Below the pieces are notes generated by a model. It saw nothing but the letters and a program-made list of their open reading frames with translations. It made no database searches and was not told the DNA's origin. Positions 55,328 to 58,895 of a DNA stretch of 64,000 nucleotides are shown in pieces. Each line of letters opens with the position of its first letter. Within the stretch, counting starts at the first letter, position 1. Both the position numbers and the translations under genes were made by a program. The DNA lies in contig OY968796.1 in NCBI GenBank assembly GCA_963695545.1, forward strand, positions 288,001 through 352,000, read 5' to 3'. The stretch comes from Terriglobia bacterium. GTDB taxonomy: Bacteria; Acidobacteriota; Terriglobia; Acidiferrales; UBA7541.

Positions 55328-55585
55328 TCTATTCGAATACCCAATCAGTTTATATTTACAAATCGTAATTGACAATCGTAATTGCCATGCTATAATGTGT
55401 TCCTATCGTCGGAGCGCTTCGTGCCTCCAGGCGGAACGCAATACCTCGCCGCAGTCGCTTCAAATCCCTCGCCAAATCCTCTCGCGTCGCCGAAAAAACG
55501 CCCTAACCCTTCTAGAATGACCAGTTCTGAGAAATCGCATTTTAACCTCTCTAGAATCAACACTTCTGGCGCAAAGGACTTAAAG
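55328..55585 (+). repeat. Promoter-led non-coding repeat element (copy B, left part), interrupted by the IS
   Basis: TCTATTCGAATAC; TTGACA(55369)-16-TATAAT(55391); AGAA-N7-TTCTG units at 55514 and 55553. Confidence 0.6.
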
Positions 55586-55646
55586 GGCGATTATGTACTT
55601 GACAAAGTAACGCGATTCAGGTAGTCTCTGTGTCAGTGAGGCTGCC

Positions 55647-56630
55647 ATGAACCTGATAGACGTAACCCGAAAGTTCGCCACGAAAGAAGCCTGCAACGAA
55701 TACCTAGCCGCGATGCGCTGGCCGAATGGCGTCACATGCACTCATTGCGGCGTTGTCGGCGACGATCAATTCCGCTCGTTCACCACGCGCGAGACTGAGC
55801 GCAAGCGGTACAGCAAGCGCAAGAAGGCTGTTGTTACGGTCAAGGTTCCGTCGCGCAGCCTGTACGAGTGCAAGGGCTGCGGCTATCAATTCAGCGCGAC
55901 CACGGGCACGGTGTTCCATGATTCGCACTTGCCGCTGGAAAAGTGGTTCATGGCGATTGCGTTGATTCTGGAAGCGAAGAAAGGAATCAGCGCATTGCAG
56001 GTCTGCCGCAATCTTGGAATCCCTGAGAGTAGCTACCGGACGGTCTGGTATCTCTGCCATCGCATCCGTGAAGCCACGCAAGAGACCGGCCTGCTATCCG
56101 GCATCGTTGAGACCGACGAGACCTACCTGACACCGAAGAAGCCGCGCAAGGGAGCGCCGAAAGTGAAGAAAGAAAAACGCGACGTGGTACTTGGCATGAT
56201 CGAGCGCGGCGGCAGGCTGCGAATGGTTCCGATGCGCGACGCGAAGATGGAGATAATCGAACCCATCCTTGCGAAGCACATCGCGCCCGACGCCACGCTA
56301 CAAACTGACGAACACCCGACCTACGCGATAATCGGGAAGCGCCGTTTTCCCGGCAGGCATCGCGCGATCAACCACAGCCAGTCCTACGGGATTGGCGACA
56401 ACACAACCAACTCGATTGAGAATGCGTTCTCGCTGTTAAAGCGCGGCGTCTATGGGACGTTCCACAAGGTCTCGATAAAGCACCTTGGCCGCTATTGCAA
56501 CGAGTTTTCCTACAGGTTCAATCGGCGCGGGAATCAGTCGGAGATGTTCGGCGAGACCGTGAAGGGATTGCTAAACAACGGGCCGCTGCCGCTCAAGAAG
56601 CTGACTGCTTCCGAAACATCGGAGACTTAG
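55647..56630 (+). CDS. IS1595-family DDE transposase
   Basis: RWPNG..CxxC...CxxC zinc ribbon, HTH, 'ETDETY', 'TDE', 'NH', 'TNSIEN', 'HL.RY.NEF.YRFN.R'; promoter TTGACA(55599)-17-TAGTCT starts inside the left TIR. Confidence 0.93.
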   Translation: MNLIDVTRKFATKEACNEYLAAMRWPNGVTCTHCGVVGDDQFRSFTTRETERKRYSKRKKAVVTVKVPSRSLYECKGCGYQFSATTGTVFHDSHLPLEKWFMAIALILEAKKGISALQVCRNLGIPESSYRTVWYLCHRIREATQETGLLSGIVETDETYLTPKKPRKGAPKVKKEKRDVVLGMIERGGRLRMVPMRDAKMEIIEPILAKHIAPDATLQTDEHPTYAIIGKRRFPGRHRAINHSQSYGIGDNTTNSIENAFSLLKRGVYGTFHKVSIKHLGRYCNEFSYRFNRRGNQSEMFGETVKGLLNNGPLPLKKLTASETSET

Positions 56631-56742
56631 AACCGCGCTTTCCAGAAGTTTTTATCTCGCTCTGTGGCTTTGGCTTTGAGCCGAGCAATGCGGAGAGTAC
56701 CGCGTCGAACTTCTTCTTCTCGACAAGTACCCTTTTCTTCAT
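56593..56742 (-). CDS. 49-aa basic protein convergently overlapping the transposase 3' end
   Basis: Hand-translated MKKRVLVEKKKFDAVLSALLGSKPKPQSEIKTSGKRGSKSPMFRKQSAS; no clear RBS. Confidence 0.45.
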   Translation of the reverse strand: MKKRVLVEKKKFDAVLSALLGSKPKPQSEIKTSGKRGSKSPMFRKQSAS

Positions 56743-56768
56743 GGGTGAATCGTAGCATAATTGCTTAG

Positions 56769-56860
56769 CGGGGCCGGAAGGATTCGGACCTTCGGAACGT
56801 GCCTTAACACGTTTCGCCCGATTATAAGTCGGGTGCTTTAAACCACTCAGCCACGGCCCC
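56769..56860 (-). tRNA. Atypical tRNA-like gene: long variable arm, anticodon UAU, G73, no encoded CCA
   Basis: GGGGCCG-TG-GCT GAGTGGTTTAA AGC-A-CCCGA CTTATAA TCGGG-variable arm (AACGTG/CACGTT)-GAAGG TCCGAAT CCTTC-CGGCCCC-G. Confidence 0.85.
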
Positions 56861-56869
56861 GCTAAGCAA

Positions 56870-56974
56870 TCAAGTGCGCCCGCCCCGGTAAGGAAACGGG
56901 CGCACCTTTGAAAAGTCTAAGTTGAAAACTGGTGGCGGTCGTGCTATAAAGGAGACCAACCGTAGGCGCATCAT
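56870..56974 (-). CDS. Putative 33-34 aa leader peptide upstream of the tRNA-like gene
   Basis: AAAGGAGG RBS then ATGATG; MMRLRLVSFIARPPPVFNLDFSKVRPFPYRGGRT*. Confidence 0.55.
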   Translation of the reverse strand: MMRLRLVSFIARPPPVFNLDFSKVRPFPYRGGRT

Positions 56975-57021
56975 CGCGCCTCCTTTCGTGAACATCGACA
57001 GTCGCTAAGGGATAGGTTCTA

Positions 57022-57053
57022 GGGGTAAGAGAGGTTACAGCCTCTCTTACCCC
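57022..57053. terminator. Perfect 13-bp hairpin (terminator or processing site)
   Basis: GGGGTAAGAGAGG-TTACAG-CCTCTCTTACCCC just after the 138-aa ORF stop; no U-tract. Confidence 0.55.
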
Positions 57054-57068
57054 GCTTCTACTTATGGT

Positions 57069-57485
57069 TCATTTAGTCCGTTTCCCCACAAACCCTACAG
57101 CAAGAAGGGGCTGTTTGTTTGCTTGAAGGTGCTCTTCGGGTATTTCGGCAACAAACATGGATTCCGATTCGTCCCACTTAGCAGGATACGATCGAGACTC
57201 AGACCGGTCATAGCCGATGTAGTCCATGAAAGTCTTGGCTGAAAATCCAGCACCGTTTCCCTTCTTCCCGTATGCCAAGGCATAAGCGCGGGAGTCTTTC
57301 TTACTGATCGGGCGAACTCCCAACTGATGCTTGGCTGCATCCCACATCAGCAGAACATACTCAACGGCGTCCTTTTCGAGGATTGCCGTGGCAGATTTGT
57401 TGAATGCTAGACGGCCTAGCTTGTTAAAGGTAACATTAGGGCTGCCACTCCGACGTACTCTGCGCGTGAAAATCTCCCAACTCAT
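57069..57485 (-). CDS. Hypothetical protein (138 aa), transposon cargo
   Basis: Globular composition, AGGAGG RBS, dedicated promoter. Confidence 0.8.
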   Translation of the reverse strand: MSWEIFTRRVRRSGSPNVTFNKLGRLAFNKSATAILEKDAVEYVLLMWDAAKHQLGVRPISKKDSRAYALAYGKKGNGAGFSAKTFMDYIGYDRSESRSYPAKWDESESMFVAEIPEEHLQANKQPLLAVGFVGKRTK

Positions 57486-57523
57486 CGCATTTCCCTCCTA
57501 TTCGAGAAGCATCGACAGAACAG

Positions 57524-57554
57524 ATTATACCATACGTTACATGAGAATTGTCAA
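57524..57554 (-). promoter_or_regulatory. sigma70 promoter for the 138-aa ORF / leader / tRNA-like unit
   Basis: TTGACA-19-TATAAT with extended -10 (TGG TATAAT). Confidence 0.7.
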
Positions 57555-57743
57555 TAGCAAACTTCAGAAACTCCCATTGTTTCCGGTAGCCTCAGAATAC
57601 TGCAAGCCTATCTCGCGTGTCCCTTGGTACGCGGTGAGTTTGACTTGGGAATAGTATGCCGGATACTTTCGTCTTGAAATACATTGCCGCAATCTTTTAT
57701 ATTGCGTTAGTGTAGCTATCGTAATCTGCTGATGAGAAACAAG

Positions 57744-57772
57744 TTGACTGGTTTATCTCGAATGCCTAGTAT
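57744..57772 (+). promoter_or_regulatory. sigma70 promoter for small RNA / DUF3800 gene
   Basis: TTGACT-17-TAGTAT. Confidence 0.65.
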
Positions 57773-57778
57773 ATCTGT

Positions 57779-57846
57779 GCGACTGGGCCGAGACGCTACG
57801 CGACTCTTGCAGGGCCGAACGGCCCCGCCCCAGACGCTTTTTTTTT
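57779..57846 (+). ncRNA. Candidate structured small RNA upstream of the DUF3800 gene
   Basis: Closing stem GCG.CTGGG/CCCAG.CGC enclosing hairpins GAG.CGC-TAC-GCG.CTC and GGGCCG-AA-CGGCCC, followed by T9. Confidence 0.6.
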
Positions 57847-57888
57847 CTCGGTCAATTGCTTCCCTCGAAGAAAGCCTGAAATCCGTAA

Positions 57889-58773
57889 ATGCACCTTTGC
57901 TACATAGATGAAAGTGGCGTGCCTGAACTAAATCAAGGGACGAGTCATTTTGTGCTGCTCGGTCTATCTATCGAGGCGTGGGATTGGAGGGGTCAAGATC
58001 GCGCGGTTTCGGTCGTTAAGCGAAAGTTTGGGCTGTACGGCGCAGAGATTCATACCGGATGGATGACTAGGCGTTATCTTGAGCAGGAGAGAATCCCAAA
58101 TTTTCAATCGCTGGATCGAACTGCTCGCCAAACACAGGTAAGAAAAGAACGGGACGCGCAACTCATCAAAGAGGATGCTCTTAAGGGAAGCAAGGCCGCC
58201 AGAGAACTGCGGAAGAGCTACCGCAAGTCAGATACCTATATTCATTTGACCCTAGGGGAACGAAGGAATTGCCTACGGGAGCTTGCTGATTTGATTGGTG
58301 GGTGGGGAAACGCGCGACTTTTCTGTCATGCAATTGATAAACGCGCCTTTGGGTCAACGCCGCCTGCTAACCCACCACGAGAAGAAGCGTTCACCCACGT
58401 AGTCAGTCGCTTTGAGCGATACCTTTCGGATATAGGAGACCCGCGAACGATCGGACTCCTTGCTCATGACCATGACGATACGTCCGCAGACAGAATGACC
58501 CAATTGATGCGCCAGTTTCATTCGAGCGGAACAATGTGGACTGCCATCACAAGAATTATCGAAACCCCGTTTTTCGTGGACAGTAAATTGACGGTTGGCG
58601 TTCAGTTGGCGGACTTGTGTGCGTATGCTACTCGCCGCTACTGCGAGAAGGGCGAGACCGATTTATTTGATAGAATTTGGCCCCGATTTAACAGGGTTGG
58701 AACGAGGGTAGTCGGGTTGCGCCATTACGTCGGGGCTCGAAACTGCACCTGCCGGATTTGTACTTCACATTAG
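57889..58773 (+). CDS. DUF3800-like (RNase H-like fold) protein
   Basis: N-terminal YIDESG, 'EIH', C-terminal 'FVDS...QLADLCAY'. Confidence 0.85.
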   Translation: MHLCYIDESGVPELNQGTSHFVLLGLSIEAWDWRGQDRAVSVVKRKFGLYGAEIHTGWMTRRYLEQERIPNFQSLDRTARQTQVRKERDAQLIKEDALKGSKAARELRKSYRKSDTYIHLTLGERRNCLRELADLIGGWGNARLFCHAIDKRAFGSTPPANPPREEAFTHVVSRFERYLSDIGDPRTIGLLAHDHDDTSADRMTQLMRQFHSSGTMWTAITRIIETPFFVDSKLTVGVQLADLCAYATRRYCEKGETDLFDRIWPRFNRVGTRVVGLRHYVGARNCTCRICTSH

Positions 58774-58848
58774 AAATACCGCCTGCCTGTCACGCCTCAA
58801 TCCTGCCGTTTGGCCGCTACTTTGTCAAATCCATATTCGCCCTTAAAG

Positions 58849-58895
58849 TCATTCAGAATCAGCACTTCTGAAAAACACCCGGGGGGGAGGGGGGC
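58849..58895 (+). repeat. Right part of the interrupted repeat element (third unit plus G-tract)
   Basis: CAGAATCAGCACTTCTG then AAAAACACCCGGGGGGGAGGGGG. Confidence 0.6.

Follow-up and report, generated by a model that had tools for sequence, protein, structure and literature searches.

Bacterial tRNAs in which body and anticodon are mismatched have been described as 8/4 and 9/3 allo-tRNAs, of which those with the anticodon UAU form the most abundant group (Mukai et al., Nucleic Acids Res 2017, PMC5389517). According to that paper, recognition by seryl-tRNA synthetase (SerRS) rests on the long variable arm together with G73 or U73, and one Edaphobacter strain carries a pseudogene that overlaps a transposon-related open reading frame (ORF). 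The present analysis concerns a related gene, called here the UAU tRNA, and the IS1595-family transposon in which it lies. Both are located in a 64,000-nucleotide stretch of a Terriglobia bacterium genome (contig OY968796.1, positions 288,001 to 352,000; hereafter the window, with positions counted from its first letter). Comparison with relatives suggests that the transposon carries its own decoder of AUA, probably inserting serine, for use in its own genes, and we rate the probability of this reading at about one half. The tRNA gene is as follows:

56769..56860, minus strand: class-II tRNA with 7/5 stems, anticodon UAU, G73 and C55 (ARAGORN, Rfam, family alignment and covariance model, fold)

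The published allo-tRNA(UAU) species and the window tRNA share the long variable arm, G73 or U73, the anticodon loop CUUAUAA, C55 and an origin in Acidobacteria-type soil bacteria (PMC5389517). The published species have an 8-base-pair (bp) acceptor stem, U73 and a D arm like that of tRNA-Sec (long stem, tetraloop), whereas the window tRNA has 7/5 stems and an ordinary serine-type D arm. An earlier note on this DNA, made from the letters alone, had named only 8/4 or 9/3 shapes for the published allo-tRNAs, which agrees with that paper, and the window tRNA has neither. It carries the long variable arm, the discriminator base (G73 or U73) and the non-serine anticodon of an allo-tRNA, and lacks the stem split and the Sec-like D arm. 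Its D-arm motifs gave no match in the supplement of PMC5389517. Measured against the published mismatched UAU tRNAs, the gene represents a new variant with 7/5 stems.

Two tRNAs were found in the window by ARAGORN, one of them with the anticodon tat at 56768-56860 on the minus strand. The Rfam model RF00005 (tRNA) matched 56769-56860 on the same strand over its full length (1-71) with 60.8 bits (E 1e-10; gathering score 29). The acceptor branch consists of a 7-bp acceptor stem, U8 and G9, a 5-bp T stem with the T loop UCCGAAU (C55), and G73. The D arm has a 3-bp stem and a loop of 10 nucleotides (nt) that contains GG (10-11 nt across the family), the anticodon arm has a 5-bp stem and the loop CU-UAU-AA, and the long variable arm has a 6-bp stem. 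Folding of the gene together with 14 nt of sequence at either end gave the cloverleaf as the minimum-energy structure (-58.5 kcal/mol, z -7.05), and 0/200 shuffles were as good. All stems were intact by both the Rfam match and the fold. Every feature that the earlier note had read here (7/5 stems, long variable arm, G73, CU-UAU-AA and C55) is present, at the coordinates that the note gave.

The tRNA-Ile that reads AUA has a class-I body with a short variable loop and A73. The window tRNA, with its long variable arm and G73, does not have a tRNA-Ile body; it has the class-II body, long variable arm and G73 of a bacterial tRNA-Ser, without a serine anticodon (NGA or GCU). A family covariance model built from nine copies was run on the host genome and gave the window tRNA 110 bits. 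The four host tRNA-Ser genes came next (72, 64.7, 61.7 and 61.1 bits), followed by a CAU tRNA taken as tRNA-Ile2 (56.9), tRNA-Tyr (55.6) and tRNA-Leu (at most 52.4). On this ranking the body is serine-like, as had been proposed from the letters. The base C55 also occurs in nine ordinary tRNA-Ser genes with serine anticodons from other phyla (loci L035, L038, L043, L060, L069, L071, L079, L083 and L091); given these sequences, it is not disabling in itself.

The host genome encodes TilS (180 bits), three CAU tRNAs and one SerRS. Since TilS is present, the host does not need the UAU tRNA. In 1,751 long ORFs of the host, selected heuristically, AUA is rare: it makes up 2.9 per 1000 codons and 6% of those for Ile. 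Elsewhere in the same genome, a tRNA-Ser-like gene (G000:C1:2260191-2260283) combines the acceptor of the host tRNA-Ser, G73 and CCA with a 6-bp anticodon stem capped by a UUCG tetraloop, so that it has no anticodon. Two further ARAGORN calls, at G000:C1:419492-419590 (99 nt) and 3061455-3061540 (86 nt), are GC-rich, have the anticodon at position 38 and look like false positives.

Relatives of the UAU tRNA were sought in three ways. By BLAST, it was present in 5/60 related genomes, with UAU in all, copies 75 to 87% identical and a patchy distribution. The covariance model was then run over 150 genomes of the same family, and the best 30 loci comprised 14 UAU tRNAs (the window and 13 other genomes) and 16 ordinary tRNA-Ser(GCU). 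A pattern scan of public genomes for the D arm and the C55 T loop was too loose, with a tRNA at the match in 15 of 80 listed loci, and added at least four family members (L020, L024, L067 and L059). Unpublished genomes in the sample enter only the denominators and one ordinary tRNA-Ser locus, and none of the claims made here depends on them. The tRNA at L067 (3987-4073), on a contig labelled as a Verrucomicrobiia metagenome-assembled genome, is identical to that at L142 (1501-1587) from a genome of the window's family and lies in a full element, which points to either transfer between phyla or a binning error.

The resulting alignment held 18 members, 17 of them distinct, and was fitted to the covariance model, which favours structure somewhat. 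In it, 98.1% of pair cells were paired, and changes on both sides were seen in 18/26 pairs, distributed over all five helices. None of 500 shuffles reached the observed value, and slid structures paired at most 51%. A 7-bp acceptor stem and a 5-bp T stem were present in the window copy and in all 18 aligned relatives. The anticodon UAU and A37 were each kept in 18/18, G73 in 17/18, and U33 and C55 in 16/18 each; the tertiary-pair positions G18, G19, C56, U54 and A58 were also kept. Random decay of the anticodon among homologues, which the earlier note had named as one finding that would undo its proposal, was looked for and not seen. With compensatory changes and an anticodon retained in every member, random decay is excluded and the gene is not a pseudogene.

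The UAU tRNA lies in a region where the GC content of the window drops from about 0.62 to 0.52-0.57 (54-60 kb). Together with an IS1595-family transposase gene and three other ORFs, it stands between genes for thymidine phosphorylase and inositol monophosphatase. The boundaries of a 3,256-bp element, 55586-58841, were defined by 27-bp terminal inverted repeats with a 23/27 match and a 7-bp target duplication. The transposase with DDE domain and zinc ribbon, the inverted repeats and the target-site duplication place it in the IS1595 family. Its ends, the transposase and the small ORF are:

55579..55585, no strand: left 7-bp target-site duplication CTTAAAG (flanks at both element ends; single in intact repeat copies)
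55586..55612, plus strand: left terminal inverted repeat, 27 nt (23/27 identical to the reverse complement of 58815-58841)
55647..56630, plus strand: IS1595-family transposase, 327 amino acids (aa) (PF12762, E 3.8e-32; PF12760, E 6.1e-10; NF033547, 176 bits against a cut-off of 75)
56593..56742, minus strand: small basic ORF, 49 aa, probably leaderless, with ATA at codon 30 (56653-56655) (comparison across 18 loci)
58815..58841, minus strand: right terminal inverted repeat (pairs with the left end)
58842..58848, no strand: right 7-bp target-site duplication CTTAAAG (matches the left copy)

The small ORF and the transposase overlap at their 3' ends on opposite strands. In a whole-genome BLAST, the element borders corresponded to the two halves of a repeat of about 135 bp with at least 20 genomic copies, and intact copies held CTTAAAG once. 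The inverted ends, the 7-bp duplication and the intact target repeat elsewhere together identify the UAU tRNA as cargo of the transposon. The host repeat itself ends in a G-rich run; the split copy occupies 55499-55585 and 58842-58894, and an intact copy is found, for example, at G000:C1:1772974-1773104. The host genome holds the transposase once more at 2.003 Mb (93% identical), again with the small ORF; neither an adjoining tRNA of the window type nor a right end was found there.

The host also has a second UAU tRNA-like gene on another scaffold type, with an 8-bp acceptor stem and U73 (41 bits with the family model; G000:C1:2007148-2007327). It is preceded by a 69-nt piece resembling the end of a tRNA, and lies 1.5 kb from an IS1-like transposase (2004872-2005720; NF033558, 48 bits against a cut-off of 100) with one ATA codon.

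In 17/18 genome loci, a transposase 44-100% identical to that of the window, or a remnant of one, adjoined the UAU tRNA, and in 10/18 both element ends bracketed the tRNA, the elements measuring 1.7 to 3.7 kb. A scan of metagenome contigs with the transposase yielded 80 loci, 39 of them at 45% identity or more (the clade) and 41 below 40%. Seven of the 39 clade loci end too early to judge; among the 32 assessable ones, a UAU tRNA-like gene was present in 25, a decayed copy in one and none in six. No UAU tRNA was found in the 41 metagenome loci below 40% identity. The decayed copy (L238) has the anticodon UAA and a broken acceptor stem and stands beside a truncated transposase. The UAU genes of the clade have at least four scaffolds; the anticodon is constant and the body is not, although all are class II. 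The first scaffold is the 7/5 serine-like one of the window, convergent with the transposase and 130-160 nt past its stop codon; the others include two further class-II shapes, co-directional with the transposase, and one 8/4 allo-tRNA. From its comparative record, the UAU gene is a class-II serine-type tRNA that is kept by selection and is probably functional, a standing passenger of the transposon and not part of the host translation set.

Several of the loci have a partner tRNA-like gene beside the UAU tRNA (L175/L176 4343-4416 and 2380-2453; L183 2827-2903; L188 2246-2322; L194 1290-1363; L174 4466-4554; L135 1365-1450; L133 1600-1693; L024 3895-3986). The types comprise class-I bodies with serine anticodons (CGA, GGA and GCU), class-II bodies with the ochre anticodon UUA, and 92-94-nt genes called as Ala (UGC or GGC); on these elements they may serve as additional mismatched decoders. 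Odd tRNAs were also seen just downstream of IS1595 transposases only 33-37% identical to that of the window (L204 4007-4092; L209/L210 4086-4159; L219 1056-1129), one of them class-II with the anticodon AGG and C55, the others class-I with the anticodon GCU.

The codons of 32 distinct transposase genes of the clade were then compared with those of 35 outgroup genes. At the protein level, 7,258 relatives were seen. In four columns, corresponding to residues 4, 203, 228 and 277 of the window transposase (55656-58, 56253-55, 56328-30 and 56475-77, all ATA), every Ile in the clade was encoded by ATA, with 32, 16, 19 and 24 codons, respectively (91/91). Twelve other Ile-rich columns of the clade held 283 ATT or ATC codons versus 5 ATA. 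Synonymous sites were otherwise well mixed: in a first set of 14 genes with pairwise identities of 50-93%, invariant Leu columns held 2 to 6 codons. Residue 4 is encoded by ATT in two outgroup transposases without a UAU tRNA. Residues 203, 228 and 277 were never Ile in the 35 outgroup proteins, which mostly had T, N, S, K, R, G, A or E, and the clade genes without ATA at residue 203 had Ser (8) or Thr (3).

In the protein core of the clade, ATA was nearly missing. For the 36 hydrophobic-core columns, defined on clade and outgroup together, ATA accounted for 4/332 Ile codons in the clade and 30/266 in the outgroup. At non-core positions, with the four fixed columns left out, the corresponding values were 24/165 and 33/175. 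In the clade, ATA was thus 12 times less frequent among the Ile codons of the core than among those outside it, compared with 1.6 times in the outgroup. Core columns with any ATA numbered 3/36 in the clade versus 16/36 in the outgroup, at a GC content of third codon positions of 0.68 and 0.63, respectively. On these counts, the clade genes do not treat ATA as interchangeable with ATT and ATC. In a Codetta-like scoring of the ATA columns against outgroup profiles, which read 9/9 control codons correctly, the per-column scores were I -3.9, N -5.8, A -5.9 and S -8.7, and the per-occurrence scores N +44.8, S -23.5 and I -95.1.

A fifth fixed ATA was found in the small ORF, which lies downstream of the UAU tRNA in 12 intact copies and one frameshifted copy among the 18 loci. 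The Ile of its K-I-K motif was encoded by ATA in 13/13 copies, while the neighbouring Lys codon varied between AAA and AAG. The motif TGnTAnnAT precedes the ORF, with the start codon exactly 6 nt later in eight loci and 7-8 nt later in four more:

56749..56757, minus strand: extended -10-like box TGCTACGAT, 6 nt ahead of the ATG of the small ORF (motif recurrence in loci)

The box and its short spacing suggest a leaderless message for the small ORF, with the box as a putative promoter.

The sequences show how the tRNA is built, that its structure and anticodon are under selection, where the transposon begins and ends, that the tRNA goes with one clade of transposases and how ATA is distributed. 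That the tRNA of the element reads the fixed ATA codons is the simplest account of this. ATA has been nearly purged from core Ile positions and stands where relatives have polar or small residues, so the element's AUA is probably not ordinary Ile. Likewise, a serine-type body, if it reads these codons, would make AUA at least partly something other than Ile, and such a partly non-Ile AUA would explain both the purge from the core and the fixation at tolerant, polar positions. The UAU tRNA would most likely decode the AUA codons fixed in the element's genes, of which the transposase has four (codon 4 among them) and the small ORF one, and AUA there would probably be read as serine, at least in part. 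The intended transposase output would then depend on the element's tRNA, whether as a one-codon private code or as a translational gate. The AUA codons would be kept, and not replaced, by the dependence of transposase and small ORF on this tRNA. Expression, processing and charging of the tRNA, the identity of its amino acid and the effect of the dependence are inferred. The fuller proposal is of an insertion sequence with a one-codon private code, in which a serine-type tRNA reads AUA, both the transposase and the small ORF use the codon in keeping with that reading and the intended proteins arise only where the tRNA is expressed, several unrelated scaffolds having reached the same UAU solution; this we hold tentatively, at somewhat less than even odds.

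A number of observations weigh against the serine reading or limit it. The Codetta-like profile inference names no amino acid for ATA. Fisher's test gave P values of 5e-9 for the ATA distribution within the clade and 9e-8 versus the outgroup, but these overstate the case because the sequences are related, and the column counts are the safer figures. The four ATA codons at core positions do occur in the clade. Where clade genes lack ATA, residue 228 is F (10), W (2) or K (1) and residue 277 is K (6) or V (2), with no Ser in either column. In the small ORF, a second Ile/Met site has ATA (4), ATT (2), ATC (1) or ATG (5), as a normal Ile codon would, and one element without the tRNA has an apparent CTA (Leu) at the K-I-K site, read by eye in an inferred frame. 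Two of the 18 relatives have C33. Six 8/4 allo-tRNA(UAU) species made as CUA variants gave no suppression in E. coli, and two were lethal, on a different scaffold and in a different host (PMC5389517). Any recoding would be partial, since the host tRNA-Ile2 would compete.

Other such points concern the making of the tRNA. A simple scan for consensus promoters around the gene gave 0 sites. The window copy encodes no CCA (G73 is followed by CUA), as against 11/11 ordinary tRNAs printed from the host genome and 13 of the 18 aligned relatives' genes, including four of the first five found; CCA could be added, as there are two genes of the PolyA_pol family in the host. Pairing of the flanks extends the acceptor helix of the folded window copy to 19 bp, which may hinder processing:

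56760..56870, minus strand: UAU tRNA with complementary 10-nt flanks ATTGCTTAGC / GCTAAGCAAT that extend the acceptor helix, in this copy only (sequence, fold)
56871..56915, minus strand: GC-rich hairpin directly upstream of the UAU tRNA (read from the sequence)

The 10-nt inverted repeat was considered as a feature of the family and ruled out, as the pairing was not seen in relatives. Hairpins like that at 56871-56915 precede the UAU tRNA in several relatives (by eye).

Public sequencing runs were also consulted. Between 85 and 89% of the element's sampled words were present in four DNA runs of one study. Contigs of one metatranscriptome cover 56778-57011, that is, most of the tRNA and 150 nt upstream with two differences, and 58414-58567; the first of these spans the GC-rich hairpin together with the tRNA. 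No cover of the transposase was seen in the same contigs, and neither transcription nor ends or strand can be read from the contigs of an RNA library, so that no firm conclusion is drawn from them. A perfect palindromic hairpin of 14 bp lies at 57022-57053, between the tRNA and a 138-aa ORF, and the metatranscriptome contig starts just downstream of it.

The alternative that survives best involves no recoding. The tRNA would simply supply AUA decoding, with Ile or with an amino acid whose identity is immaterial, and the fixed ATA codons would be slow points that tie the output of the transposase and the small ORF to the level of the tRNA. Such a gate would resemble the rare TTA codon of Streptomyces with its tRNA. 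AUA is rare in the host, and ATA stands at codon 4 in 32/32 clade genes, against ATT in two outgroups. The fixed columns lie at variable, tolerant positions, the second site of the small ORF mixes ATA, ATT, ATC and ATG, and the profile test names no other amino acid. IleRS reads the anticodon-loop bases A35, U36, A37 and A38, and all four are conserved here. A gate of this kind leaves unexplained why the core purge of ATA in the clade is so much steeper than in the outgroup, why the slow codons persist in the same four columns, and why all of the at least four scaffolds are class II with G73 or U73 and not captured tRNA-Ile genes. We regard it as a serious minority possibility, well behind decoding of AUA as serine for the element's own genes.

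Less probable, and in our view unlikely, is a mistranslating tRNA that acts on others, either as the toxin of an addiction module or as a defence that puts serine at AUA codons of AT-rich invaders. The latter had been one of the two proposals of the earlier note. Its first half, a serine-type body that reads AUA, agrees with the present results, which also show selection on the anticodon; its target does not, as the conserved AUA codons were found in the transposon's own transposase and small ORF, for which mistranslation of foreign genes gives no reason. The serine-type body with an Ile anticodon and the rarity of AUA in a GC-rich host would suit such an agent. In addition, two variants out of the six allo-tRNA(UAU) species were lethal to E. 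coli, and toxin-antitoxin genes are often found near allo-tRNAs (PMC5389517). The cargo of the element includes two further genes:

57069..57485, minus strand: cargo ORF, 138 aa, no known family (a 46%-identical homologue stands at the same place in L020)
57889..58773, plus strand: cargo gene for a DUF3800 protein, 294 aa (PF12686, E 9.6e-17)

The DUF3800 gene, which has a 26%-identical counterpart in an element of the same genus (L011), could be counted in favour. It was the only cargo gene recognised: the 49-aa and 138-aa ORFs gave no family match in Pfam, PADLOC or NCBIfam. No defence-family match was obtained among the neighbours and no antitoxin-like partner was recognised, and the tRNA tracks the transposase clade, not a defence island.

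More improbable still is a tRNA-shaped signal that works outside translation, as a processing or stability element of a neighbouring transcript, a decoy or a promoter. Most species of allo-tRNA(UAU) are, as Mukai et al. suggest, not used in translation (PMC5389517), and C55 replaces the near-universal U55 in 16/18 relatives. The window copy, without CCA and on its long helix, would also fit. However, CCA is encoded by most aligned relatives, the tertiary-pair positions are maintained, C55 is shared with the nine ordinary tRNA-Ser genes, and the match between the anticodon and the fixed ATA codons would be a coincidence. The possibility that the DNA of the anticodon loop is kept as a TATAAT promoter was rejected, as TATAAT was present in 13/18 (by eye) and the -10 reading TAnnnT in only 14/18, both less constant than UAU and A37. 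For a decoy or substrate of anticodon nucleases, the other proposal of the earlier note, nothing was found that bears on it, and the neighbouring genes matched no defence-system family. Finally, a decaying tRNA-Ser pseudogene hitch-hiking in the mobile element, for which one could cite the missing CCA and the visibly decayed metagenome relative L238, is highly improbable in view of the strong compensatory covariation in all five helices of the model-fitted alignment, an anticodon invariant across copies as divergent as 75 to 87% identity and the intact stems of the window copy.

With decoding of AUA by the element's own serine-type tRNA as the preferred reading, the system was compared with those already known. 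In the part of PMC5389517 at hand, transposon ends, a transposase family and a conserved AUA in a transposase are not described, and its supplement has 0 matches for 'IS1595' or 'transposase'. A word search of a later Mukai paper (PMC7590224) found neither UAU nor transposons, and the available part of a review (PMC7609411) adds nothing further. A literature search on IS1595 elements with tRNA passengers, on UAU anticodons with transposases in Acidobacteria and on insertion sequences with tRNA genes and AUA codons returned no paper on a coupling of tRNA and codon. To our knowledge, the fixed placement in an IS1595-family element and the matching ATA pattern are undescribed.

Members of the IS1595 family (ISfinder) encode a DDE transposase whose N-terminal part is a zinc ribbon; they end in inverted repeats, duplicate a short target sequence and occasionally carry passenger genes. 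The window element shares the transposase type, the inverted ends, the target duplication and the carriage of passengers; we are not aware that any tRNA gene has been described as the regular passenger of an IS1595 element. In bacteria without TilS, such as Mycoplasma mobile, a class-I tRNA-Ile(UAU) replaces the lysidine system. That tRNA has in common with the window tRNA a UAU anticodon that reads AUA, but the latter is class II with G73 and its host keeps TilS.

Sense-codon reassignment is known from whole genomes and organelles, and stop-codon recoding from phages. If the preferred reading is true, a missense-type tRNA that matches the fixed rare codons of the transposase beside it would give a mobile element a new means of self-control or genetic isolation. 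It would also provide a function for allo-tRNA(UAU), which as the commonest group of allo-tRNAs has had none since 2017. The weaker reading as a rare-codon gate, if true, would still be a new form of transposition control. A codon reading private to a transposon is directly testable.

In phages, suppressor tRNAs accompany the stop-codon recoding of phage genes, and the window element resembles them in that a mobile element brings along the tRNA that its genes need. It differs in that the phages recode a stop codon, with in-frame stops as the evidence, whereas here a sense codon in an insertion sequence would be recoded, probably as serine. A second parallel is the bldA tRNA-Leu(UAA) of Streptomyces, a dedicated decoder of rare TTA codons. 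In both cases a rare codon of a GC-rich genome stands at specific places in target genes and is served by one dedicated tRNA; bldA, however, belongs to the host chromosome and is an ordinary leucine tRNA, whereas in the window the body and the anticodon are mismatched, and the tRNA and its putative targets travel together on a transposon.

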